From Maritimibacter sp. (lineage in GTDB: Bacteria; Pseudomonadota; Alphaproteobacteria; Rhodobacterales; Rhodobacteraceae): 64,000 nt of DNA. Positions 33,215 to 46,514 of this stretch are shown piece after piece. Under the pieces are notes generated by a model. The model worked only from the letters and a program-made list of their open reading frames with translations. It had not been told where the DNA came from and ran no database searches. Positions within the stretch are counted from its first letter, which is position 1. Every line of letters starts with the position of its first letter. The stretch is from assembly GCA_050633625.1 (NCBI GenBank), contig JBOEGW010000002.1:565-64564 (forward strand), given 5' to 3'. Made by a program: the position numbers and the translations under genes.

Positions 33215-35263
33215 ATGTATTTGTCAAAACTAACCATCAGCGGATTCCGACAATTTGGACAAGGCGACGCAGCTGCTGAATTGACCTTCCAGCCAGGGGT
33301 GACAGCGCTGATTGGCAAGAACGATAGTGGCAAAACAGCGATCATTGATGCTATTCGCTATGCATTGCTGAGCCGTGATCAAATGTATTTCAAGGTGCAA
33401 CCGGAAGACTTTCACGTCGATGCGGCCGGCAGCAGTGTCGACGATATCAGGATCACGTGCGTTTTATCGGATCTCGGAACCGGTGATCAGGCAACCTTTG
33501 CGGAACATCTTACTTACTTGGACGGGAAGGTTTCGCTATTGGTGAATCTTCATGCCAGACGTCTTGCCACAGAGGGGTCTGCACGCAGATGGGTAGAAGT
33601 CAATGTCCGGTCGGGGTTGGATGGTGTGGGCCCTGCACTTGAGATGACTGTTCGCGAATTGCTTGCCTCAGCATATCTCAAACCGTTGCGGGACGCCGAG
33701 CGTGAACTCTCGTCTGGTCGCGGATCCAGACTGTCACAAATCCTCTACCACGTGGATGGAATCAAAGAGGGTGCTTCGTTTGATCCCGAAAACCCACCTG
33801 CGACACCGGCGGCAACAACTGGGTTAAGCCTGCTCGGTCTTTCAGAATACTTTGGACACAACGTGAAATCTCACAAGGGTGTTGTGGATGCGCAAAGCGC
33901 TATCAACTCCAATTACCTGAAGTCGTTACTTCTGGCTGGTGACAAAATGACCGGCAAGATCGATTTAACAGAAGGTGGAAACAAAGATGCTCGGCTTCGC
34001 CAAATTCTTGAGCGGTTAGAACTTGGCCTCATGGATGCCAGCGGCACTCAACCCCGAGGCAGGTTTGGCCTTGGGTCCAACAATATTCTCTACATGGCTT
34101 GCGAATTGCTGCTTCTTGGACGCGAACCAGAAGGGTTGCCACTGTTATTGGTCGAAGAGCCAGAGGCACATCTCCACCCTCAACGGCAACTTCGGCTTAT
34201 GCAGTTTCTCAAGACCGCTGCTGAGGGAAGGGTGCAGGATGAAGAAGGTCGTAAAGTCCAGGTCATCTTATCAACGCACAGCCCGAATTTGGCCTCGGGA
34301 CTTCCTGTAGCAAACACCGTTCTCTTGGACGGAGAGAATGCGCACCCTCTGTCGCACGACCACACTTGCCTTTCCTCAAATGACTATTCGTTTTTGGAAC
34401 GATTTCTCGACGCGACGAAAGCAAACCTCTTCTTTGCGCATGGGGTTTTGATTGTGGAGGGTGATGGTGAAGCCTTGGTCCTGCCCGCCATAGCGCGAGC
34501 GATTGGTCTCGATCTTAGTACGCATGGCGTTTCAATCGTCAATGTAAAGGGCACGGGGCTTCGCCGTTTCAGCAAGGTTTTTCAAAAGTCCGATGAAGCC
34601 AAGACCTGGATATCAATTCCTGTGGCTTGCATCGCAGACATGGATGTCATGCCAGACGCTGCGCCCGAGATACTTGGCCTCGTCACCGGCGATGATGATC
34701 CAAAGTGGACTAATCCGAAGCGGCGGTGGAAAGCGAACAAGCACTTTGGGCCAGATGCTTCCGCCATTGAAGCAGGTTTGAAAGAACGTTCTGAAGGTCT
34801 CTGCAAGGAAGACGCACAAAACGTACGAACGTTCGTCAGCAGTCACTGGACCTTGGAATATGATCTTGCCCGCAATGGAATCGCCTCAATGGTATTCAAT
34901 GCTGCAATGCTCGCCAAAGCTCACGACAAAATTTGCGATGGGACCGCGACACAAGATGATATTCTTGCAGAAGCGGGGGAGGCTTTCGAAAAATTGTTCG
35001 CCGATTGTGGCAAAGACGATGAACTCACGGCAATCCATATCTACCAACTCTTCACTTCGAAAAAGGCATCCAAGGCGATCGCGGCACAATACTTGGCTGC
35101 CGCTATCGACATTGAGGCGGCAAGTGAAGGATTTGACTCTGCAGCATTTGAGGCATGCCTTCCGACTTATCTTGTAGATGCGATCAAACACGCCTGTGAC
35201 AAAGGATCGGCGCCAGTCCTTGCTGATGAAGCTCAGCCAGGTGTCGTTGCGGCTGAGCAATGA
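33215..35263 (+). CDS. gajA: OLD-family ATP-dependent endonuclease (ABC-ATPase + TOPRIM), GajA-like
   Basis: Walker A GKNDSGKT, LLLVEEPEAHLHPQRQ, TOPRIM Glu in VLIVEGDGEALVLP, and DxD in ACIADMDVMPD. Paired with a UvrD-like helicase. Confidence 0.85.
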   Translation: MYLSKLTISGFRQFGQGDAAAELTFQPGVTALIGKNDSGKTAIIDAIRYALLSRDQMYFKVQPEDFHVDAAGSSVDDIRITCVLSDLGTGDQATFAEHLTYLDGKVSLLVNLHARRLATEGSARRWVEVNVRSGLDGVGPALEMTVRELLASAYLKPLRDAERELSSGRGSRLSQILYHVDGIKEGASFDPENPPATPAATTGLSLLGLSEYFGHNVKSHKGVVDAQSAINSNYLKSLLLAGDKMTGKIDLTEGGNKDARLRQILERLELGLMDASGTQPRGRFGLGSNNILYMACELLLLGREPEGLPLLLVEEPEAHLHPQRQLRLMQFLKTAAEGRVQDEEGRKVQVILSTHSPNLASGLPVANTVLLDGENAHPLSHDHTCLSSNDYSFLERFLDATKANLFFAHGVLIVEGDGEALVLPAIARAIGLDLSTHGVSIVNVKGTGLRRFSKVFQKSDEAKTWISIPVACIADMDVMPDAAPEILGLVTGDDDPKWTNPKRRWKANKHFGPDASAIEAGLKERSEGLCKEDAQNVRTFVSSHWTLEYDLARNGIASMVFNAAMLAKAHDKICDGTATQDDILAEAGEAFEKLFADCGKDDELTAIHIYQLFTSKKASKAIAAQYLAAAIDIEAASEGFDSAAFEACLPTYLVDAIKHACDKGSAPVLADEAQPGVVAAEQ

Positions 35264-37275
35264 CAGATCATCCGACCATACCGGAAGTGACCGACGAGGA
35301 CATTGCCTGGATTGCCGACACGATGGGTTTGGACGACCTGGATGGGGACCGGCGAGCCTTCCTCAAAAGAACTGGTACGTTCGATGTGTCGGCTTGCCCA
35401 GGTAGCGGAAAAACCACGCTGGTTGTGGCGAAACTCGCAATTTTAGCAAGGAAATGGCGTCACCCCACGTCAGGCATATGCGTACTTTCACACACGAATG
35501 TCGCCCGTGAAGAGATTCAGAACCGATTGGGTCACACACCAGTGGGGCACCGCCTGCTTCACTATCCGCATTTCATCGACACGATACATGCCTTTGCCAA
35601 TCGCTTTCTGGCTTTGCCGTATCTGCGCTCGAACGGCTTCCCATCACCGCTCGTTGATGATGACGTTGCAAAAGCGTTCCGCTGGAATGTGTTGCAAGGT
35701 CAAGAGCGCTGGAACTTCGAAAACTGGTTGAATAACAGACACACCAGCATAGATGACATCACCTTCCTCGATAGCGACTTATCGGTGGCGTTGACTTCAA
35801 GAGATTTTCCCGCTGGACCTCATACTGCAACTTATCAAAGGGCAAAGCGGATTATCGTAGAGTCGGCAACCGCGGGTCACTTCCGATATGAAGAAATGTT
35901 TGTTTGGGCGGAGTGCCTTCTGGAGCAGTTTCCGGAAATTTCGGTAAGCTTATCTCGCCGGTTTCCACTGGTTCTGATGGACGAGATGCAGGACACGTCG
36001 CAACGGCAGGCAGCACTTCTTGCGTCGATTTTCGACCGCACAAACGGACCCTGTTTTGTACAAAGAGTGGGAGACCCAAATCAGGAGATATTCAAGAGCG
36101 GGCAGGAGCAGAACATTGCCGATCCATTTCCTGATGTTTGCGAAGGTCGCACTATGTCGATCGGAAGTAGCCGGCGGTTTGGTGCCCCTGTCGCCGACCT
36201 CGCAAATCCACTTGCCATCGTTCCGATAGACGACGGCGGACTGCAGGGAAGTGGTCCGCAGCGCGCAGCCGCATTCTCTGATCACAATCGCAACCTCATC
36301 ATTGTCTTCCCCGATAACAATACAGATGGTGTTCTAGACGCGTTTGGAACGCACCTCCTCGAAACTTTCGACGATGAAACAATTGCGATCGGAGATTGCG
36401 TTGCGGTTGGCGGGGTTCATCGGCCGGCACCAGAGGCGATCGCCGCAGGGCATGCAAAGTTTCCAAGGTCTGTGGAACACTATTGGGGCGGGTATAGCCC
36501 CGAGGTATTAAAGTCAGACCGGCATCCCAAAACACTTGTCGGTTACGTTCATCATGCTCAGATCATGATGCGAATGTCCGGAGATACCGCCGGGGGGATC
36601 GCGCATTTTGCGACAGGCCTTAAGCGACTCGCTCGACAAATCGGTAAGCCAGAAAGCACGCTGGAGCGAACGCGTAAGCACATGGCCATTCGAGGCGTGC
36701 TTGCACCTATCCCTGACGCACTGGCGCGATATGATCAGTTCGTCAATACTTTCCTCATTGCGATGACGCCGGTGACTGAGGAAGTATGGCCGGGTTACGC
36801 GCAGCAATTTCGCGAGCTAGCTGGACAACTATGCCAAGGCGATATCAACCTTGACGCTGGTGCTGGTTTTTTGGCTTGGGAGGACCCGCAAGCCGACCTG
36901 CCTGAACCAGGAGTTGCGCAGGCGCATACCGACAACGTCGTCAATGTGAGTTTGGGTGACCGGGAAGTGTCTATCCGCCTTGGTTCGATTCATCAGGCTA
37001 AGGGGCAGACACACTTTGCGACGCTGCTATTGAGCACTTTCCAAAACCACCATTCATCGGAGAAGATCGTTCGCTGGCTCACGGGAGAAAAATTAGCCGG
37101 AATCGGCGAAGGTGTTCAGAACGTCTCGCGACTAAAACAATCCTATGTTGCGATCACACGACCAACGCATCTCGTGGCGATAGCTTTGCGCGATTCAGCA
37201 ATAGCGGCAAATAGAGCTCAGGCATTGGAGCAGCTTCAAGCGCGGGGATGGGAGATCAGGGACCTTTGCACCTGA
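35260..37275 (+). CDS. gajB: UvrD/Rep-family helicase, GajB-like
   Basis: Walker A CPGSGKTT and Walker B LVLMDEMQDTS. ATGA overlap with the OLD-nuclease gene. Confidence 0.85.
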   Translation: MTDHPTIPEVTDEDIAWIADTMGLDDLDGDRRAFLKRTGTFDVSACPGSGKTTLVVAKLAILARKWRHPTSGICVLSHTNVAREEIQNRLGHTPVGHRLLHYPHFIDTIHAFANRFLALPYLRSNGFPSPLVDDDVAKAFRWNVLQGQERWNFENWLNNRHTSIDDITFLDSDLSVALTSRDFPAGPHTATYQRAKRIIVESATAGHFRYEEMFVWAECLLEQFPEISVSLSRRFPLVLMDEMQDTSQRQAALLASIFDRTNGPCFVQRVGDPNQEIFKSGQEQNIADPFPDVCEGRTMSIGSSRRFGAPVADLANPLAIVPIDDGGLQGSGPQRAAAFSDHNRNLIIVFPDNNTDGVLDAFGTHLLETFDDETIAIGDCVAVGGVHRPAPEAIAAGHAKFPRSVEHYWGGYSPEVLKSDRHPKTLVGYVHHAQIMMRMSGDTAGGIAHFATGLKRLARQIGKPESTLERTRKHMAIRGVLAPIPDALARYDQFVNTFLIAMTPVTEEVWPGYAQQFRELAGQLCQGDINLDAGAGFLAWEDPQADLPEPGVAQAHTDNVVNVSLGDREVSIRLGSIHQAKGQTHFATLLLSTFQNHHSSEKIVRWLTGEKLAGIGEGVQNVSRLKQSYVAITRPTHLVAIALRDSAIAANRAQALEQLQARGWEIRDLCT

Positions 37276-37356: not shown

Positions 37357-37836
37357 CTAGTGTGTTTTGAGCCAGATCATTCCGTCAAATGCTCCAAGCT
37401 TTGCCTTATCCTTGGTCTCGTAGAGACGGCGGGCCTGGATTGCGATTCCGGTGGCCGGATCGGTGATGGTTCCACTCCACCCACCGGGGTTTGAGAAAAC
37501 AACGATGTGGAAGCCATCCGTCTTTAGGTAGTCGTTTCCATTTGTCGACACTTTCCATTTCCGAGTCAGCCACCGTGCGCGTCGTTGGGCTAAGTTTTTG
37601 CTGTCAGATTCTCTCTTTGAAGCAGCTGCGTAGTCTTCTTCCAACTTACCGGCACAGACGCAGCCACAGTCTAGAATGTCCTGATAGTTTGGATGCTGCA
37701 TTTGGTGAACATAGCGAATCTCTTGGTTTTCGCACATCTCACATTCTGTGGCTGGCTCGCCGAGGTCCTCAAGCCCGATACAGATCCAGCCCTTCTTTGG
37801 AACACCTTGCTTTGACCATTTGCCTAATGACGACAT
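37357..37836 (-). CDS. Cys-rich hypothetical protein (159 aa)
   Basis: ATG preceded by AGGAAG. CEMCENQEIRYVHQMQHPNYQDILDCGCVCAG suggests metal binding. Third gene of the WYL-WGR operon. Confidence 0.65.
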   Translation of the reverse strand: MSSLGKWSKQGVPKKGWICIGLEDLGEPATECEMCENQEIRYVHQMQHPNYQDILDCGCVCAGKLEEDYAAASKRESDSKNLAQRRARWLTRKWKVSTNGNDYLKTDGFHIVVFSNPGGWSGTITDPATGIAIQARRLYETKDKAKLGAFDGMIWLKTH

Positions 37837-37845
37837 GCGTTCTTC

Positions 37846-38091
37846 CTAACCGTCAGAGGACGTCAGCCTGAGCAGATAGCCTCTTGCTAGTATTTGTTTG
37901 ACCAGACCGGATAGGGCGTATTCTGCTTCGGTTTTAGACGTGAACCAGTCATGCCGATGCCGCCCCCAAGTGCCGAAGCGACCCCACTGACGGTGAACAC
38001 CGATATGTCCGAAGAGGTCCTTGGTCAGTTCCACGGAATAGAAGCGGTTCATGTTGACTGATGGATCAACGCGTCGCATGTCAATTTGCAT
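37846..38091 (-). CDS. WGR-domain protein (81 aa)
   Basis: NRFYSVELTKDLFGHIGVHRQWGRFGTWGRHRHDWFTSKTEAEYALSGLVKQILARGY is the WGR pattern (W-G-R triad with flanking FY...L). Overlaps the WYL gene end by 11 nt. Confidence 0.8.
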   Translation of the reverse strand: MQIDMRRVDPSVNMNRFYSVELTKDLFGHIGVHRQWGRFGTWGRHRHDWFTSKTEAEYALSGLVKQILARGYLLRLTSSDG

Positions 38092-38899
38092 TGATTTCCT
38101 CTCCGCTCATCGGGACATAGTCTATGGAGACGCGTTGGAGCCGAGGCTCTTTTTGCTCAAGGCCCCATCGGCGTTTAGTGTAGAACTCGAGCGCCTTTCG
38201 GGTTCTGGCTTCAAGCACGTCTCCGTTGAACCCAAATTCAATGCGCACCACACGTTGTTGTGCTTCAGTAAGTCTGGAATGCGGTTTAAGCTTCAGAATA
38301 GCCCAGGTGAACCAATCATCATCTCGGGGCACCGCATCGGCTGGCTTGGTTTTTGAGAAAGAATGATCAGGATCGATGCGAGCAGGATGGAAGTCACGGA
38401 AACCCTCTCGTTCAAAGCACCAGGCTCGCACGTGAAGTCTAACTCCATCAGACGCGAACCGAACAGGTGCAATCCAGCGTGTCATCGGCTCCGGGTCTCG
38501 CATCGATTGGTAAACGATCTGCGTTGCCTCATTTGCCCGGAATGCGCGGAACAGCGGACGTAGGACGCGCAGGTCCTGAGTCCGTTGCAAATCGGGCAAT
38601 CTATCGAATGCAGGTAGTGGTGCGCTGGAAAGAAGCTGCTCCAACTCGATCGAAGAGGCTTTACCGGTCAGCTGTTCAAAGCTCGCGTCCGCACGGTATC
38701 TGCGCGCCGACGCATCATAGTGCAGTGCGTCTTTTGGCGCTTCAGCGAGGTAAGTACGAAAATCGAGCGCGGCTTGCGCATTTGAAATTCCAAACCGTTT
38801 AATCAATGAGGCACGGGTCGCCGCGCCATCCCAGAAAAACAATCTGTCTAGGTATTCCAAGCGTGCGCGCTGAGCATGTTTGAGGTCTTCGAAGGTCAT
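38081..38899 (-). CDS. HTH-WYL domain transcriptional regulator (BrxR/CapW-like architecture)
   Basis: N-terminal winged-HTH-like ATRASLIKRFGISNAQAALDFRTY. Central WYL-type segment RWIAPVRFASDGVRLHVRAWCFEREGFRDFHPARI. 272 aa. Confidence 0.8.
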   Translation of the reverse strand: MTFEDLKHAQRARLEYLDRLFFWDGAATRASLIKRFGISNAQAALDFRTYLAEAPKDALHYDASARRYRADASFEQLTGKASSIELEQLLSSAPLPAFDRLPDLQRTQDLRVLRPLFRAFRANEATQIVYQSMRDPEPMTRWIAPVRFASDGVRLHVRAWCFEREGFRDFHPARIDPDHSFSKTKPADAVPRDDDWFTWAILKLKPHSRLTEAQQRVVRIEFGFNGDVLEARTRKALEFYTKRRWGLEQKEPRLQRVSIDYVPMSGEEINAN

Positions 38900-38970
38900 G
38901 GATGGAAGCTAGCTTGACTCCCATCAATTGTCCATATACTTTTTACACGTATATAATTTAATGGTGTAAT

Positions 38971-40107
38971 ATGAAAATCCTTCATACGGCAGATCTGCAC
39001 TTGGGGCGGCAATTCATGGGCTTGAGCCTCGAGGAGGATCACGAGGTCATCCTCGACCAAATCCTTGAGACGCTTGTGGTCGAGAGCGCCGATGTTCTTG
39101 TGATAGCAGGAGACGTTTTTGATCGTGCCTCGCCACCCAATTCATCAATCCGGCAGTTCAACCGTTTCCTCAAGCGTTTATCTGAGGAGACCGATGCCGC
39201 CGTGGTGATGATCTCTGGCAACCACGATTCCGGCGATCGGATCGAGGCAATGTCGGTCTTCTCCACTGCATCACGGGTACTTGTTCGCGGCATTGCCGAC
39301 GCCGTCGAAACTCCACTTGTGCTGCGCGATGAACATGGCGAGATCGCTTTTTCCGCGCTGCCCTTTTCCTATGAATACGCTGCTCGAGAGGTGTTCGGGG
39401 ATACGGGCATCAGTGCGCCAGCAGATGTTATCGCTGCGCAAATTTCCGCGGCGAAGGCCCAAGTGCCTGAAGATGCACGTTGGGTAGTAGTGGCCCATGC
39501 ATTCGTTGCGGGCGGAGCAGTCGGCGAGGCCGAACGCGCGTTGACGCGGGTCGGCGGCATCGAAACCGTGCCCGCTGATGTCTTCGAGGGTGCGGACTAT
39601 GTTGCACTGGGACACTTGCACAAGCAGCAGGAAGTAGGCGCGCGCCATGTTCGATATTCCGGCGCACCGCTTGCATTCGGATTCGACGAGGCGGGAAGCG
39701 AAAAATCCATGACTGTCGTCGATCTGAAAGCCGACGGTGTTGATATCTACACCGTTCCGTTCCGTCCAATCCGGCAAGTGCACTCGCTCACAGGTGCATT
39801 CGCGGAACTTCTGGCAGGAACGCCGTCTGAGGACTTCATCCAAGCCATCCTAACGGATGAGGTTCCTCTCATTGATCCGATGAAACGGTTGCGCGCGATC
39901 TATCCCAATGCCTGTCATCTGGCGTACGCCCGACAGGCGCGCGCGCCGGAGACCAAGGCTTTTGGCACCGGGCGGGCCGCAGTTACGCCAATCGAAATGG
40001 TCGGCGAGTTCATTAAGGTTGTGCGCGGCCGAGAAACGGATGCCAACGAAACCACGATCGTAGCGGACAAGCTCCACGACGCAGCCTCTGGGGAGGAGCA
40101 GACATGA
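38971..40107 (+). CDS. sbcD: SbcD/Mre11-family nuclease
   Basis: Phosphoesterase motifs HTADLHLG, AGDVFD, SGNHD, GHLH. Confidence 0.9.
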   Translation: MKILHTADLHLGRQFMGLSLEEDHEVILDQILETLVVESADVLVIAGDVFDRASPPNSSIRQFNRFLKRLSEETDAAVVMISGNHDSGDRIEAMSVFSTASRVLVRGIADAVETPLVLRDEHGEIAFSALPFSYEYAAREVFGDTGISAPADVIAAQISAAKAQVPEDARWVVVAHAFVAGGAVGEAERALTRVGGIETVPADVFEGADYVALGHLHKQQEVGARHVRYSGAPLAFGFDEAGSEKSMTVVDLKADGVDIYTVPFRPIRQVHSLTGAFAELLAGTPSEDFIQAILTDEVPLIDPMKRLRAIYPNACHLAYARQARAPETKAFGTGRAAVTPIEMVGEFIKVVRGRETDANETTIVADKLHDAASGEEQT

Positions 40108-43100
40108 GACCCATTCGCCTATCGCTTCAGGCCTTCGGGCCGTTCGCGACAACCGAGGTGGTGGATTTCCGCTCCGCGCTGGAAACAGGACTGTTTGGAA
40201 TTTACGGTCAAACGGGCGCGGGAAAGTCGACGCTGTTTTCGGCGATGTCCTTTGCCCTCTTCGGGGCACCAACCAAGACCGATCAGGAACCACGCTCGCT
40301 GCGTTCGGATCACTCCGCGCCAGATCTACCTACGGAAGTTGAATTTGTCTTTGAACTGGGTGCCAAGGCCTATCTGATCCGTCGTCGTCCGGTGCAAGAA
40401 CGTCCAAAAGCACGCGGCGAAGGGACGACCGAGGATGCCGCGGAAGCCTCGCTTTTCGAAGTCACCGGGATCCCGGTGGACACGCTTGGCCCGAGCCAGC
40501 CTGGCCGTGTCATTGCTGAAAAGAAAGTCTCGGTAGTGGGGCAACAGGTCGAAGCGCTGTTGGGATACGGAGCAGATCAATTTCGACAGATCGTGCTCTT
40601 GCCACAAGGCAAGTTCGAGACGTTCCTAGCCGCAAAAACTGATGCGCGGGTCGAGATATTGCGAGATCTCTTCGACGTGAAGATCTATCGCGATCTCGCC
40701 GCCCGGTTGAAGGATGAAGCCTCAGAGGCAGAAAGAGCACTGCGCGAGCAGCGCGTGCTCTATGTAGCACGGCTAAAGGAACGCGGCTTTGAAAGCGCCG
40801 ACACGTTGGAACTGGGGATTGCCGCGGCTGAAGCCAACGTTGAAGAAAAGCTGGGTATTCAGCAGGGCACGGAGAAGGCGAATGAAGCGGCGCGTAAGGC
40901 TTTGACCGACGGCGAGCAAATCGAAAAGGCCTTTGTTGCAGTCGATACAGCGCGGCAGGCACTTGACGATCTCGAAGCGAAAACGGGCGAAGTCGATGCT
41001 CTGGCCAAGCGGGTTGATACAGTCAAGAATGCCTTGCAGGCCTGTGACCTTGAGACAGCTTGGCACAATGCAGAGCGCGATGACCAGGTTACAATGAATG
41101 CCGTGACCAAAGCCGAAGGGGAGCTCAACACGGCCACTGTGACCAGGAAAGAAGCGGCGCAAAAACTGGTTGAAGCGCAGTCGGGCGAGGAGCGACGGCA
41201 ACGGGTTCAGGCCGACCTGACAAGGTTAGAGGCGATCGAGAACCAGGTCGGGCAGGCAGCGGAGCTTCAGAAAGCGTTTGATGAAGCTGCGAACGACGAA
41301 GCCTCGGCAAAGAAGGCGCTGACCGAAGCCGTAGAGGAAAGCGAAACGCTCCAGTCTCAGCGCGACGCGACCGATCTGGTGCTTGAACAGGCGCGAAAGA
41401 CTGAGGCGGCGCGAGGCAAGCTGACGGGTGAACTGGCCGAGATCAACCGCGAACTGATCAACGCAACGGCACATGCGAAGGCGCAAGGAGCTGTCGTGGA
41501 TGCCAAACGAAAGGTCGAAGCGGCATCGAGCGAACTGCCGACAAAAACTGAAGCGGCGCAAGCCGCCGATGCAGCCTTGATTGAGGTTGAGGCTCGGCTT
41601 TCGCGCACACAGGCGATAATTCTGGCCGAAAAGCTGGCCGAAGGGGAGCCGTGCCCTGTCTGTGGTTCCCACGATCATCCTATGCCAGCCCATGGTGCGC
41701 CCGAACAATCTGGTTTGACCGAAGCGTTTCGTAACGCGCAGGCCCAGGCGAGAACCGCAGCCGAAGCCAGGGTTCGGGCGGAAAGCGAACTCGGCAATTG
41801 GCGAACGCGGCTCGACGAAACGAAACGGGCACTGGACGAACATGAACGGCCTGAGCGCACGTTGGTGGAACTCGAATCTGAAATCATACGACTGAAAGGC
41901 ACCGTCGCCGCGCTTGGAGAGGCCATCGATCTTGATGCGATGGAGGAGCGGTTGGCCGATCTCAAGCGGAAGGTGACCGAGGCCGAAGCTATCGAGGCTA
42001 CGGTGCGCACGGCTGCAGGACAGGCTGGAACCAATTTGGCCGGGGCGCGAGCCAAGCGCGATACAGTGGTTGGGGCCCTGCCGGACGGTCTGCGCACACC
42101 TGATGCGGTTGTCGCACGGCGGGAGGCTTTGCAAAGCGAGCAAAGGCAGCTTTCCGAAGCGCTGGACCTGGCGACGCAGGCGGATCAAGCAGCGAGCGAG
42201 GCGCTCGCCCGGGCGCAAGAGCAGTTCGAAGCAGCAAAGCGGGCGCGCGAGGCGCAGGCCCGGCGTGCGGAAAAGGCGCAAGGTGACTTCCGCGCACGGC
42301 TGGAAGAAGTCGGGCTAGACAAGGCAGAGTATGTTGCTTGCAAGGCGCATTTCCCGACTCTCGACGCCGACCGTCAGACGGTGATCGATCAACGTGAGGG
42401 CCTGATCGCAATGCGCACGACATGGCAGAACGCTGCAACCGCTTGTGCGGATCACGAGCGCGCTGATCTCGCGCCGCTTCAGTCAGCGCTGGACGACGCC
42501 ACCCAAGCTTTGAACGCGGCCAATGCGGTGCTCGCCACAGCCAGAACGGATGTAACGTCACTAACCAGATTCAAGGATTCGCTGGCTGAGGCCTTGGCCG
42601 AAACCGAGCGGCTTGAGTCCGAATCCGGGCCGCTTCGTGGGCTGGCCGATCTGGCCAATGGCAAGAACGATTTCAAGATGACGCTCGAGACCTTCGCGAT
42701 AGGCGCCATGTTCGACCAAGTGCTCGAGGCGGCAAACATGAGGCTCGACCCTATGACGCGCGGGCGTTACCGGCTGACGCGCGGACTTGACGCGTCAGGT
42801 GGGCGCGGCAAGCGCGGGCTCGAAATCGAGGTCTTTGACATCAACACCGGCAAGGCGCGTCCAACGGCTACCCTGTCCGGTGGTGAAACATTCATCGCGG
42901 CACTAGCCTTGGCGCTTGGGCTCGCCGATGTGGTCGAGAGCCAATCTGGCAAAATCCGGATGGACACGATCTTCATCGACGAGGGCTTCGGCAGCCTCGA
43001 CACCGAGAATGGAGCAGGCACGCTGGACCAAGTGATTCAGGTTCTTGCTGCGCTGACAGAGGGCAGCCGGGCTGTGGGACTGATCTCGCACGTCGGCCAA

Positions 43101-43184
43101 GTTCAGGAGGCCATACCCCAAGGCTTCTATGTGCGTTCGACCCCAAGCGGCAGCCGAGTCGAGGAAAGAAAGGGACTAGGATGA
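40104..43184 (+). CDS. sbcC: SbcC/Rad50-family ATPase
   Basis: Walker A GQTGAGKST, very long coiled coil with zinc hook CPVCGS, signature LSGGE, Walker B IFIDEGFGSLD. ATGA overlap with sbcD. Confidence 0.9.
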   Translation: MRPIRLSLQAFGPFATTEVVDFRSALETGLFGIYGQTGAGKSTLFSAMSFALFGAPTKTDQEPRSLRSDHSAPDLPTEVEFVFELGAKAYLIRRRPVQERPKARGEGTTEDAAEASLFEVTGIPVDTLGPSQPGRVIAEKKVSVVGQQVEALLGYGADQFRQIVLLPQGKFETFLAAKTDARVEILRDLFDVKIYRDLAARLKDEASEAERALREQRVLYVARLKERGFESADTLELGIAAAEANVEEKLGIQQGTEKANEAARKALTDGEQIEKAFVAVDTARQALDDLEAKTGEVDALAKRVDTVKNALQACDLETAWHNAERDDQVTMNAVTKAEGELNTATVTRKEAAQKLVEAQSGEERRQRVQADLTRLEAIENQVGQAAELQKAFDEAANDEASAKKALTEAVEESETLQSQRDATDLVLEQARKTEAARGKLTGELAEINRELINATAHAKAQGAVVDAKRKVEAASSELPTKTEAAQAADAALIEVEARLSRTQAIILAEKLAEGEPCPVCGSHDHPMPAHGAPEQSGLTEAFRNAQAQARTAAEARVRAESELGNWRTRLDETKRALDEHERPERTLVELESEIIRLKGTVAALGEAIDLDAMEERLADLKRKVTEAEAIEATVRTAAGQAGTNLAGARAKRDTVVGALPDGLRTPDAVVARREALQSEQRQLSEALDLATQADQAASEALARAQEQFEAAKRAREAQARRAEKAQGDFRARLEEVGLDKAEYVACKAHFPTLDADRQTVIDQREGLIAMRTTWQNAATACADHERADLAPLQSALDDATQALNAANAVLATARTDVTSLTRFKDSLAEALAETERLESESGPLRGLADLANGKNDFKMTLETFAIGAMFDQVLEAANMRLDPMTRGRYRLTRGLDASGGRGKRGLEIEVFDINTGKARPTATLSGGETFIAALALALGLADVVESQSGKIRMDTIFIDEGFGSLDTENGAGTLDQVIQVLAALTEGSRAVGLISHVGQVQEAIPQGFYVRSTPSGSRVEERKGLG

Positions 43185-43483
43185 CAAACCGATTGTATTA
43201 CCGCAAGGCGCACACCCGCCGACTGTCGACAGGCCGAACAGTCTCGGTCCGTGGCGGTTGGGCGCTCCGGGTCGGTCGCGGAAGTAGGAAGAGCGCATCC
43301 TTCAGGCGGACTTGTCCAATATGCGGTGCACTGATCGTAAGCGTTAGTATGCCCAAAGGTGGGTGGGTCCACTTCGAGGGAGGTAAAGGCCTGACACGCA
43401 TTAAACACCCGTGTCTGCATCTTGGCGAAGGTTTGAGCGGGCGACATGACGAGAACACTCCAGATCTTTTCGGTTTGCCCTGA
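43181..43483 (+). CDS. Small basic putative zinc-ribbon protein (100 aa), coupled to sbcC
   Basis: ATGA overlap with the sbcC stop. Arg/Lys-rich N-terminus, then CPICG...HPCLH. Competing antisense ORFs exist, so confidence is moderate. Confidence 0.4.
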   Translation: MTNRLYYRKAHTRRLSTGRTVSVRGGWALRVGRGSRKSASFRRTCPICGALIVSVSMPKGGWVHFEGGKGLTRIKHPCLHLGEGLSGRHDENTPDLFGLP

Positions 43484-43598: not shown

Positions 43599-43643
43599 TT
43601 ACACGTATTTTCTGCTGTGCGTTTACACGTAAAGTCTGCTGTG
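43599..43643 (+). repeat. Tandem 21-nt direct repeats TTACACGTA-NNN-TCTGCTGTG (x2)
   Basis: 43599-43619 and 43623-43643 match at 18 of 21 positions. Followed by the inverted repeat GACTTTC-N8-GAAAGTC (43643-43664). Confidence 0.8.
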
Positions 43644-43693
43644 ACTTTCGACCGATTGAAAGTCAACGCCCGACCAATTGACAGTGTCGCACC

Positions 43694-44338
43694 TCAGACC
43701 CGCGGAACCTGAGCCTCCTCGTTTGGATCACCAACAGCCAAATCAAGCTCTGGCAAATCTCGCAGCGTCTGCAGATCAAACGTCGTCAGAAACACTTCCG
43801 TCGTGACAAACGTGTGCGGCGCACCCGGCCGCGGTGACCTCGGCCCGCTGGCAATCAGATCCTTGTAGCGCAATCGCGATAGCAAATCGCGGCTCACGTC
43901 CTTGCCAAAGATGTCCTTGAGCCCCGCGCGGTCAATGGGTTGATGATAGGCAATGGCACAGAGCACACCCATCTCCATCTCGGTAAAAGCGAGCGACTGC
44001 TCACCAAGATCCGCAGCCGCCTTGATCGCGTCCGCAAACTGCGTCTTCGTGCGGAACATCCACCCGCCAGAAACCTGCACCAGTTCGTAGGGCCGACCCG
44101 TCAACTCGGCTTGGATATCGTCAATCAGCATGTCGACCGAGGCCTCCTGCCCTAACACGCGCGCTAGGTCATCGCGACCGACGGGCGACGCACTGGCAAA
44201 GAGCACCGCTTCGATCCGCCCCATCCATTCGCGCCAGCGTAGATCTTGCGGCAAGTCTTCGAGCTCGCGGTCAAAGACACAATCGCGTCCCGAGCCCTCA
44301 TTTTCTTTCGCTGTTTTACCTTTGGCCGCGCCGGTCAT
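43694..44338 (-). CDS. scpB: ScpB-like (segregation/condensation protein B family)
   Basis: IEAVLFASASPVGRDDLARVL...ELVQVSGGWMFRT...GVLCAIAYHQPIDRAGLKDIFGKDVSRDLLSRLRYKDLI matches the tandem winged-helix ScpB pattern. Confidence 0.75.
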   Translation of the reverse strand: MTGAAKGKTAKENEGSGRDCVFDRELEDLPQDLRWREWMGRIEAVLFASASPVGRDDLARVLGQEASVDMLIDDIQAELTGRPYELVQVSGGWMFRTKTQFADAIKAAADLGEQSLAFTEMEMGVLCAIAYHQPIDRAGLKDIFGKDVSRDLLSRLRYKDLIASGPRSPRPGAPHTFVTTEVFLTTFDLQTLRDLPELDLAVGDPNEEAQVPRV

Positions 44339-45291
44339 GGCGCGATACCATACAGCCGAAACGTCGGTCGACCGGTCAGCTCACGCGCCACTCCCAATTC
44401 GACCAACCGATCACAAAGCCGCCGCGCCGCGCGATCTGTCATCGGAATAGTCGTCCCTTGGATCATCGGCGACAGCGCGGTCGAAGGTGCCACGGCATCC
44501 TCAGACAAAAACAGCGCAACGGCCGCATCGGATCCCTTGGCCCGCAGCTTCGGCGCGACTGCCTGAAGCGCGGCAGCGCGTTGAGCAAGGTCACATGAGC
44601 GGTGGACCGCATCTTCGATGGACTGCAGGATGCGCAGCTGAACCGCGAGTTCCGGCTCGTCCTCGTCCAGATCTCGTAGTATGGCCTTAGTAAGACAATG
44701 CGCCGAGACGGGCAAAACGACCGGCCAGTTCAAGACTCGCGCCAGCACCACATCAGAGAACAGACAAGCAACCCGCTCCGCCCGGTCGTCCACCTCCAGC
44801 ACCGAACGCATCACCGAAACGCACCCGACCAGCGGCCCATGGGTTTGACAGCGGGAAGCGGCCGATCGAAGCCAACCATCGACTTCCGTTTCAAGGTCCA
44901 ATCCAACAAATGCCTTGAGCGCCGCATTCCAATCGCGCCCAGTTATGCGCAGCCGCGCCGCGTCGCGCCAGAAGGCCAAGAGATCTCCATCCGGACCACG
45001 TGCCTCACCCGCTGGCGTCAGATGAAAAGCGTCGCGGATATCGACCTCTCGCGCCATCCGCCCCTCTAGCTTTGAGGTTGCCGACGCGGCAGTCAGCGCC
45101 AATCGGTTGGCAAGCAATTTCACTGGCACGCCTCCGGATGGATCGCTGACCAGCTGATCGAGGATCGTAAGGGCCACACCAGACCGAAATGCCACAGTTT
45201 CAAGGGTTTCTGCACGCCCTGAGGTGACCCAGGCAGGAAGCTTCGGTAGGCTGATCAAGTCGTTTGAGACAGTGGCAGGCTGAAAGGTCAT
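44335..45291 (-). CDS. DUF1403-like protein
   Basis: About 318 aa, overlaps the ScpB-like start by 4 nt. N-terminal LPAWVTSGRAETLETVAFRSGVALTILD recalls DUF1403 proteins of alphaproteobacterial plasmids. Assigned from memory and not verified. Confidence 0.5.
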   Translation of the reverse strand: MTFQPATVSNDLISLPKLPAWVTSGRAETLETVAFRSGVALTILDQLVSDPSGGVPVKLLANRLALTAASATSKLEGRMAREVDIRDAFHLTPAGEARGPDGDLLAFWRDAARLRITGRDWNAALKAFVGLDLETEVDGWLRSAASRCQTHGPLVGCVSVMRSVLEVDDRAERVACLFSDVVLARVLNWPVVLPVSAHCLTKAILRDLDEDEPELAVQLRILQSIEDAVHRSCDLAQRAAALQAVAPKLRAKGSDAAVALFLSEDAVAPSTALSPMIQGTTIPMTDRAARRLCDRLVELGVARELTGRPTFRLYGIAP

Positions 45292-45366
45292 GCTAGAACG
45301 ATACCTCAGCACGGCGCTTATATCCACAAAATATCACGTAAACCGCCCCACTCTGTCAGTCTTTTC

Positions 45367-45404: not shown

Positions 45405-46514
45405 ATGCTCAGCGCCATGTCGGAAAACAACGAGAAATCGCGCTCAAAGCCACCAAACGGGTCTTCGTTCAACGAGGACAACGAGAGAGATCGCCCGGAC
45501 GGCGAAGCCTTGAACCTCCCTTCCTTTGTGGCGGGTTCAGGCAGCCTCGACCGGCTGGTCGATACCGCCCGCGACTACGCACGCGCTGCGGCCTCGGACA
45601 ATACGCTGAAGGCCTACGCGAAAGACTGGGCGCATTTCGCGCGCTGGTGCCGGATTAAGGGCGCGGAGCCGCTGCCTCCTTCATCTGAAATGATCGGGCT
45701 CTACCTTGCGGACCTGGCGTCCGGAGCGGGCCCCTCGCCTGCCCTATCGGTCAGTACCATCGACCGCCGCCTGTCGGGCCTCGCCTGGAACTATGCGCAG
45801 CGCGGCTTTGCCCTCGATCGCAAGAACCGCCATATCGCCACCGTGCTGGCCGGGATCAAACGCAAACACGCCCGTCCGCCGGTGCAAAAGGAAGCGATCC
45901 TGGCCGAGGACATCCTCGCGATGGTCGCCACCTTGCCTTACGACCTGCGCGGTCTGCGAGATCGGGCCATCCTGCTCCTCGGCTATGCTGGGGGCCTCCG
46001 ACGCTCGGAAATTGTCAGCCTCGACGTGCACAAGGACGACACGCCGGACTCGGGCGGCTGGATCGAGATCTTCGACAAGGGAGCCCTGCTCACCCTCAAT
46101 GCCAAGACCGGCTGGCGTGAGGTCGAGATCGGACGCGGCTCCAAGGACCAGACCTGCCCTGTCCATGCGCTCGAGCAATGGTTGCACTTCGCCAAGATCG
46201 ACTTCGGCCCAATTTTCACCGGCACCTCGCGCGATGGCAAACGCGCCTCAGAAACCAGGTTGAACGACAAGCATGTCGCGCGCCTGATCAAGCGCACGGT
46301 TCTGGACGCCGGCATCCGGTCGGACCTGCCTGAGAAAGACCGCCTGGCGCTGTTCTCCGGCCATTCGTTGCGCGCCGGTCTCGCCAGCTCCGCCGAAGTC
46401 GACGAGCGCTACGTCCAGAAGCAGCTTGGCCACGCCTCGGCCGAGATGACCCGCCGCTATCAGCGCCGCCGCGACAGGTTCCGGGTAAACCTGACCAAAG
46501 CCGCCGGTCTCTGA
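45405..46514 (+). CDS. Tyrosine site-specific recombinase/integrase
   Basis: C-terminal catalytic region FSGHSLRAGLASS...QKQLGHASAEMTRRYQRR (R..HxxR..Y signature). Confidence 0.9.
   Translation: MLSAMSENNEKSRSKPPNGSSFNEDNERDRPDGEALNLPSFVAGSGSLDRLVDTARDYARAAASDNTLKAYAKDWAHFARWCRIKGAEPLPPSSEMIGLYLADLASGAGPSPALSVSTIDRRLSGLAWNYAQRGFALDRKNRHIATVLAGIKRKHARPPVQKEAILAEDILAMVATLPYDLRGLRDRAILLLGYAGGLRRSEIVSLDVHKDDTPDSGGWIEIFDKGALLTLNAKTGWREVEIGRGSKDQTCPVHALEQWLHFAKIDFGPIFTGTSRDGKRASETRLNDKHVARLIKRTVLDAGIRSDLPEKDRLALFSGHSLRAGLASSAEVDERYVQKQLGHASAEMTRRYQRRRDRFRVNLTKAAGL

Follow-up and report, generated by a model that had tools for sequence, protein, structure and literature searches.

A mobile SbcCD cassette of Alphaproteobacteria with a CapW/BrxR-type regulator and a conserved small third gene as a candidate defence system

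SbcCD, the bacterial Mre11-Rad50, belongs to the best-studied nucleases acting on DNA ends, and the bacterial enzyme is seen as a housekeeping one with two subunits. A stretch of 64,000 nucleotides (nt) from Maritimibacter sp. (Rhodobacteraceae; GenBank assembly GCA_050633625.1, contig JBOEGW010000002.1, positions 565 to 64,564), hereafter the window, carries complete sbcD and sbcC genes, and the end of sbcC overlaps a 100-amino-acid (aa) open reading frame (ORF), which we call orf100. An initial annotation of this DNA, made from its letters and translations, proposed a mobile SbcCD with an extra coupled subunit, specialised against foreign DNA ends or hairpins and distinct from housekeeping repair. 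The locus raises the question of whether a nuclease known for repair has been recruited, together with a small partner, to act on invading DNA.

Here we present a computational analysis that partly supports this interpretation. The neighbouring genes, as read from their sequences, support the defence-island setting, and the small ORF is borne out as a conserved companion of this clade of SbcCD, probably coupled to it in translation. The clade acts like a defence cassette in that it is rare, mobile, equipped with a regulator of the type that senses single-stranded DNA (ssDNA) in immune operons, and accompanied by a fixed small partner with a docking-peptide-like tail. Our favoured reading, to which we assign a probability of about 50 %, is that the cassette may be an ssDNA-inducible mobile SbcCD with a stoichiometric zinc-ribbon cofactor, and so a candidate defence system, as yet undescribed, aimed at foreign DNA.

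An intact SbcCD in a conserved cassette

The core of the locus consists of three genes on the + strand: sbcD (38971..40107; 378 aa), encoding an Mre11-type phosphoesterase nuclease subunit; sbcC (40104..43184; 1026 aa), encoding a Rad50-type ABC ATPase with a coiled coil and a CPVC zinc hook; and orf100 (43181..43483; 100 aa), encoding a small basic protein with a putative CCHC zinc ribbon, the proposed third subunit or cofactor of SbcCD. In the ORF listing and its translation all three frames are intact and both junctions, sbcD/sbcC and sbcC/orf100, are 4-nt ATGA overlaps, the second of which had been noted from the start and is found at the coordinates given here.

SbcD matches Pfam Metallophos (E = 1e-12) and SbcD_C (E = 5.7e-12) and clears the NCBIfam model TIGR00619 with 164.7 bits against a cut-off of 77.65. 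SbcC contains the Pfam domains AAA_23 and SbcC_Walker_B as well as the Walker A motif GQTGAGKST, the CPVC hook, LSGGE, DEGF and an H-loop, and among solved structures it comes closest to E. coli SbcC (6s6v, E = 1.4e-28). The SbcD motifs D.H, GD..D, GNHD and GH.H are kept in all of 58 related loci, as are the Walker A, signature, Walker B and H-loop of SbcC; the zinc hook is kept in 55 of them. Pfam, NCBIfam and the translation thus bear out the early description of two complete genes with all their motifs, zinc hook included, and the SbcCD encoded here is, by these motifs, a catalytically intact ATP-dependent nuclease of the Mre11-Rad50 type. SbcC scores under the curated cut-offs of the NCBIfam SbcC models (TIGR00618, 246.8 versus 478.5 bits; sbcc_Staph, 347.5 versus 920) and is therefore placed in a divergent clade, which the domain-level evidence keeps in the family.

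Conservation of the arrangement was assessed by scanning one genome per species, which yielded 80 loci, 76 of them informative, from other Alphaproteobacteria. The initial annotation had suggested looking for orf100 homologues immediately behind sbcC, and a full-length sbcC lies directly ahead of orf100 in 60 of the 76 informative loci. In 58 of these 60, sbcD and a divergent gene for a WYL-domain regulator stand upstream. The order WYL-sbcD-sbcC-orf100 holds down to 41-44% SbcC identity, across Rhodobacterales, Hyphomicrobiales, Hyphomonadaceae, Parvibaculum and plasmids of Rhizobiaceae. Throughout the 60 loci orf100 starts 0-15 nt past the end of the SbcC match found by tblastn, behind a purine-rich tract; this spacing and the ATGA overlap are consistent with translational coupling of sbcC and orf100. 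Alphaproteobacterial SbcCDs at 31-35% identity have neither the WYL gene nor orf100.

The three core genes have also diverged together, identity to the window correlating at r = 0.99 between SbcC and SbcD and at r = 0.94 between SbcC and orf100. For the WYL protein r is just 0.39-0.50, because two WYL variants (~90% and ~38% identical) have been exchanged, with a breakpoint just inside the WYL start. At the DNA level, homology between cassettes ends sharply on the right at 43470-43473, ~10 bases short of the orf100 stop codon, and on the left at ~38865 or ~37360 (often 37358-37366). The position of the right border makes orf100 the last gene inside a discrete unit.

The other informative loci lack a full-length sbcC. 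Ten retain only a 3′ piece of sbcC ahead of an intact orf100. Six have no sbcC; in three of these orf100 is truncated at its 5′ end and adjoins unrelated genes that are themselves truncated, and the other three are solitary copies (54-57% identity) in heterogeneous contexts. The partial-sbcC and truncated-orf100 loci were considered as alternative operons and rejected: those sampled are deletion remnants, abutting truncated unrelated genes for NnrS, an SDR and a Strawberry-notch helicase.

Two further loci illustrate the range of the arrangement. On one chromosome (G414, locus L091; SbcC 45% identical) a WYL gene and sbcDC are followed, in the place of orf100, by a 232-aa transposase-like ORF that looks IS6-like by eye, and the small gene has probably been lost there through an insertion sequence. 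Another genome of the same family as the host (G110) holds two diverged cassettes, L096 and L097, with SbcC 83% and 44% identical to that of the window; each has its own WYL gene and orf100, and the 83% copy adjoins Gabija genes and orf159, an optional neighbour described below.

The small gene orf100 and its protein

A word-indexed search returned 53 orf100 homologues at 50-91% identity, and a profile run exhaustively against 1.84 billion cluster representatives gave only 104 clusters, nearly all of them stand-alone proteins of ~100 aa. When 75 related loci are compared with the window, codon positions 1, 2 and 3 show 1299, 1189 and 3212 differences, a third-position excess that indicates purifying selection in the orf100 frame. 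On these comparisons of sequence, orf100 is a real, conserved gene. In two metagenome contigs (L084/L085) a family member of ~32% identity lies divergent from the gene of a 552-aa DUF6119 protein, not behind sbcC.

The gene appears unannotated in most plasmid records, for instance in that of the Phaeobacter inhibens plasmid pP66_d (L082), and in an S. meliloti plasmid record (L083) a "hypothetical protein" has been called over it on the opposite strand. Gene callers seem to overlook the family as a rule, as far as can be read from a PLSDB gene table that is itself incomplete. No significant match to orf100 was obtained in Pfam, NCBIfam, PADLOC or a PDB sequence profile search, and tblastn against a phage collection gave no match. 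At a minimum, it stands for a small protein family absent from Pfam, NCBIfam and PADLOC.

The motif CPICG...HPCLH that had first drawn attention to the protein is present. In an alignment of 57 sequences C45, C48 and H76 are invariant, and C78, D95, L96 and F97 are found in at least 90%; H64 and H80 show no conservation across the family. The conserved C45/C48/H76/C78 set points to a CCHC zinc site, so that the ligands of the predicted ribbon differ in part from what the motif alone had implied. Direct tests for a zinc ribbon scored weakly (Pfam Zn_ribbon_3, E = 0.098; eS27, E = 0.11). The N-terminal half contains 13 K/R and no D/E, and the whole protein has an isoelectric point (pI) of 11.3. 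An AlphaFold2 model built from the same alignment is all-beta with a predicted local distance difference test score (pLDDT) of 87, an earlier model from 24 sequences having been poor (pLDDT 62). Foldseek found no global fold match for it, the best hits having E = 1.0 (PDB) and 0.36 (BFVD).

The C-terminal tail is of a different character: it carries a conserved acidic motif T[P/L]DLF[D/E], in which D, L and F are each found in at least 90% of sequences. QLDLF is known as a strengthened beta-clamp-binding motif (PMC3664792). Compared with the clamp motif QL[S/D]LF, the last three positions of the tail are alike, and a fourth agrees in 17 of the 57 sequences, which have L at position 2; position 1 in this register is T or M and never Q. 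We regard this likeness to a clamp-binding pentapeptide as a lead.

Regulation, mobility and competing explanations

Divergent from sbcD on the − strand lies the gene of the regulator (38081..38899; 272 aa). Its product matches the WYL models of Pfam (E = 5e-9) and PADLOC (E = 1e-12), and aligns near full length to the solved structures of CapW (7tb5/7tb6, E = 2e-31; for 7tb5, E = 1.9e-31 over residues 8-250) and BrxR (7t8k, E = 4.5e-27). What had been listed as a possible WYL regulator is confirmed as such and, by these alignments, is a member of the CapW/BrxR (wHTH-WYL-WCX) family. Members of this family are ssDNA-released repressors of immune operons (PMC11662680, PMC9122601): in CapW, ssDNA bound at the WYL domain frees the repressor from DNA (PMC11662680), and regulators of the BrxR type are found alongside many defence systems (PMC9122601).

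The 71 bp between the two genes (38900..38970) form a divergent promoter/operator region, its operator role being proposed by analogy with CapW/BrxR. Its layout is conserved over ~55 distinct loci, with a length of 70-78 bp and the order CTTGACTC, GTCCATA and then a palindrome-like box right before the sbcD start. The box reads TTACACGTATA in the window; next to WYL variant A it is TTACAnnTGTAA and next to variant B the perfect palindrome CTATACGTATAG. This co-variation of box and WYL variant, together with the family membership of the regulator, supports a putative repressor-operator pair.

How far is such a cassette part of the normal equipment of its hosts? Of the 151 genera sampled from the host's family, 3 have a full-length SbcC relative, as do 4 of the 301 genomes sampled from the class, and this rarity means that SbcCD is not core in the host lineage. 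The cassette therefore adds a function to a lineage otherwise without SbcCD and does not duplicate a housekeeping enzyme. The sbcC of the window is the sole copy in its genome, a situation which the initial annotation had associated with plain repair; that the copy is the only one holds true, and its weight is reduced because family and class largely lack SbcCD. For the same reason a housekeeping SbcCD that happens to sit on a plasmid was rejected as the full explanation.

The claim of mobility is supported. The cassette was found on at least 32 plasmid records, of which 19 are conjugative and 10 mobilizable, and other cassettes are chromosomal, the chromosomes measuring 1.4-4.3 Mb. Bacteria of separate orders (Rhodobacterales, Martelella, Litorimonas) hold copies that are 80-87% identical, and the cassette is mobile between marine and soil bacteria. 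A plasmid origin of the window itself, as had been assumed, is supported because a repABC plasmid of Sulfitobacter pontiacus encodes a 100% identical orf100 protein (tblastn) and has the same downstream gene order and tandem repeat.

The flanks of the cassette are highly variable, 317 flanking ORFs falling into 201 protein clusters. The neighbours that do recur are nearly all defence genes, next to genes for plasmid partition, conjugation and transposition. A SIR2-HerA pair is seen upstream (the SIR2 gene in 8 loci, HerA in 3) and a ThsB-like, Thoeris-like TIR protein downstream in 11 loci; Gabija, AbiEi/AbiEii, Shango SngA/SngC and PDC-S73 also recur. In the window the neighbour outside the cassette is Gabija, and its adjacency was clear from PADLOC matches to the OLD-like ATPase-Toprim GajA (33215-35263, E = 2e-189) and, in the next gene, to the UvrD-like helicase GajB (35260-37275, E = 1e-157).

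Under the favoured reading, a mobile SbcCD deployed against foreign DNA, a WYL dimer would at rest occupy the palindromic box over the sbcD promoter/start region and keep the operon low. By analogy with CapW, ssDNA would bind the WYL domain and free the repressor, whether it stems from replicating phages, from DNA entering by conjugation or from damage. SbcD, SbcC and the orf100 protein would then be made in fixed ratios through the overlapping stop and start codons. SbcCD would cut hairpins, cruciforms and DNA ends, either free or blocked by protein, and may thereby degrade these structures where foreign DNA invades or replicates in a lineage otherwise without the enzyme. As a stoichiometric cofactor, the orf100 protein might bind nucleic acid or the SbcC head through its basic N-terminal beta-hairpins and CCHC ribbon, and its acidic T[P/L]DLF[D/E] tail might serve as a peptide that docks on SbcCD or on a host factor, for example the sliding clamp. 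In a more specific version orf100 would be a zinc-ribbon adaptor and the first known case of a third subunit dedicated to a bacterial Mre11-Rad50 complex, its tail docking on the beta clamp or another part of the replisome and aiming an ssDNA-induced SbcCD at replicating foreign DNA; we consider this version speculative and rather unlikely. If it is true, WYL-SbcD-SbcC-orf100 would represent a new anti-phage/anti-plasmid class with a repair nuclease as effector. Should the cassette restrict phages or plasmids, the defence catalogue would gain one more system. As a precedent, a transposon screen for conjugation barriers hit the core-genome SbcD (bioRxiv 10.64898/2026.07.06.735840).

Several observations weigh against a defence function. 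The association with defence islands is circumstantial, and in PADLOC-DB v2.0 the cassette matches no named system: SbcD finds only weak matches, to PDC-S10 and PDC-S60 (E about 1e-7), and SbcC a weak, partial match to one LmuB model (E = 2e-20, residues 27-447). The expectation that no three-gene system of SbcDC plus a small protein had been described agrees with this, none having been found in PADLOC v2 or in the literature searched. Relatives of orf100 also occur where there is no SbcCD, with a DUF6119 gene beside them, behind the gene of a ribonucleotide reductase or close to one for a PLD-like protein, so that the small protein is not bound to SbcCD in every case; the DUF6119 arrangement suggests that the putative zinc-ribbon protein can pair with other partners. 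Finally, WYL regulators are not all immune repressors, since DriD and PafBC run DNA-damage regulons.

This last point leads to the main rival, an accessory DNA-repair or damage-tolerance module, which we take seriously and consider the less likely of the two. Here the WYL protein would sense ssDNA from damage and induce SbcCD and its cofactor with no foreign target, and the enzyme would process protein-blocked ends, hairpins or stalled forks of the host or plasmid, to the benefit of lineages without a chromosomal SbcCD. Such a role would fit DriD and PafBC as WYL activators, the sole sbcC copy in the genome, some Moraxellaceae relatives in which sbcC is one of the damage genes under a WYL regulator (PMC12392091), and the established job of SbcCD in blocked-end and hairpin repair (PMC6265447). 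However, the regulator is nearest to the immune-operon repressors CapW/BrxR and not to DriD/PafBC, and the recurrent neighbours are nearly all defence systems. The distribution is also patchy (1-2% of genomes), with transfer between orders and carriage on plasmids, and one genome holds two diverged copies.

The part played by orf100 can be turned around. As a brake or immunity factor it would hold SbcCD inactive, or shield host forks and hairpin ends, until a trigger arrives, in analogy to an antitoxin or to the phage and telomere proteins that tame Mre11-Rad50. The gene is indeed downstream of and coupled to the nuclease, its product is very basic and DNA-binding-like, and it stays intact in the 10 loci where a deletion has truncated sbcC. 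Some cassettes moreover are carried on plasmids of Agrobacterium, whose linear chromosome ends in hairpins. Inhibitors of Mre11-Rad50 at hairpin ends do exist, TelN being an example (PMC12624138). The remnant loci, however, resemble recent deletions abutting truncated unrelated genes and not selected retention, and no toxin-antitoxin-like signature is seen. E. coli, in addition, tolerates its SbcCD without any such factor. We judge the brake improbable.

That orf100 is an unrelated hitch-hiker at the 3′ end of the cassette, functionally unlinked to SbcCD, would suit the stand-alone homologues in unrelated contexts and the want of any fold or family clue, but it is very hard to reconcile with an orf100 start that overlaps or almost touches the end of sbcC in lineage after lineage, even where SbcC identity is as low as 41%, with the correlated divergence of orf100 and SbcC, and with a cassette border just ahead of the orf100 stop that leaves the gene inside the unit.

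The surroundings of the cassette in the window add a possible further component. Between Gabija and the regulator lies orf159 (37357..37836, − strand), a Cys-rich ORF with the motifs CEMCEN...CGCVC, for which searches of Pfam, NCBIfam, PADLOC and PDB returned no match. It is found full-length in the same position in 14 loci alongside WYL variant A, with shorter fragments in a few more, and a weak relative (22% identity, E = 4e-7) stands directly behind orf100 in a distant metagenomic locus (L089, 1268-1957). From this placement orf159 may be an optional fifth component of WYL-variant-A cassettes. The low-GC island in which sbcDC had first been placed does not include sbcDC itself: a stretch of 49-55% GC at ~24-39 kb takes in Gabija, orf159 and the WYL gene, and sbcDC, with 58-63% GC, abuts it.

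To the right, the − strand carries a ScpB-like gene (43694-44338) overlapping a DUF1403 gene (44335-45327), beyond which a tyrosine integrase gene follows on the + strand (45405-46514). This stretch resembles an independent module of the plasmid or of an island; the ScpB-like/DUF1403 pair was seen again in one other locus only (L041), 5 kb off. The interval between the convergent orf100 and ScpB-like genes holds two tandem copies (43599-43646) of a 24-bp repeat, TTACACGTA-N4-CTGCTGTG, with TTACACGTA starting at 43599 and 43623; its first 9 bases are those of the sbcD-promoter box (38943). It is confined to this plasmid and a near-identical record and absent from the other cassettes. As a cassette border or shared operator the repeat was rejected, being plasmid-specific and outside the conserved cassette.

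Comparison with known systems

The nearest enzyme is canonical SbcCD (E. coli, PDB 6s6v). Both have the motifs of the phosphoesterase and of the ABC ATPase, a CxxC zinc hook set in a long coiled coil, and overlapping genes in the order sbcD-sbcC. The cassette differs in being accessory and mobile where the canonical enzyme is core, in its dedicated CapW/BrxR-type WYL regulator, and in a conserved third gene, for a predicted zinc-ribbon protein, that overlaps sbcC. To our knowledge canonical SbcCD has no such partner, and no account of this cassette or of any third bacterial SbcCD subunit was found in the literature searched. It is also distinct from the other alphaproteobacterial SbcCs, without orf100 or WYL, by the low identity (31-35%) given above.

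In its regulation the cassette resembles the immune operons under CapW/BrxR control (CBASS, BREX and others), with which it shares a divergent wHTH-WYL-WCX repressor, a palindromic box, a short intergenic region and a defence-island location. The cargo differs, being here an SbcCD-type nuclease with a small zinc-ribbon protein; in the BrxR survey no mention of exonuclease, SMC, Rad50 or Mre11 cargo was found.

Lamassu (LmuA/B/C; DdmABC) and Wadjet also employ a Rad50/SMC-like coiled-coil ATPase, thought to sense foreign DNA ends or structures (PMC10586767, PMC11707656). In the cassette, by contrast, the partner is a true Mre11-type SbcD, neither an LmuA effector nor a JetD Toprim, and the small partner is a predicted zinc ribbon with no LmuC- or kleisin-like gene beside it. 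Membership in Lamassu was not supported, the match being a partial one to LmuB alone and the cassette having no LmuA- or LmuC-like gene.

Eukaryotic Mre11-Rad50 works with cofactors, Nbs1/Xrs2 and CtIP/Sae2, in which a third subunit that is not itself catalytic uses a short docking peptide and tunes the nuclease or directs it to its targets. The concept is alike and the comparison is one of analogy only, the orf100 protein being 100 aa long, predicted to bind zinc, and without sequence or fold similarity to these cofactors. If the cassette restricts phages or plasmids, it would offer a simple bacterial model of how Mre11-Rad50 is targeted by its cofactors. Its mechanism is not categorically new: the cassette combines two known kinds of system, the SbcCD/Mre11-Rad50 nuclease and the CapW/BrxR-regulated immune operon.

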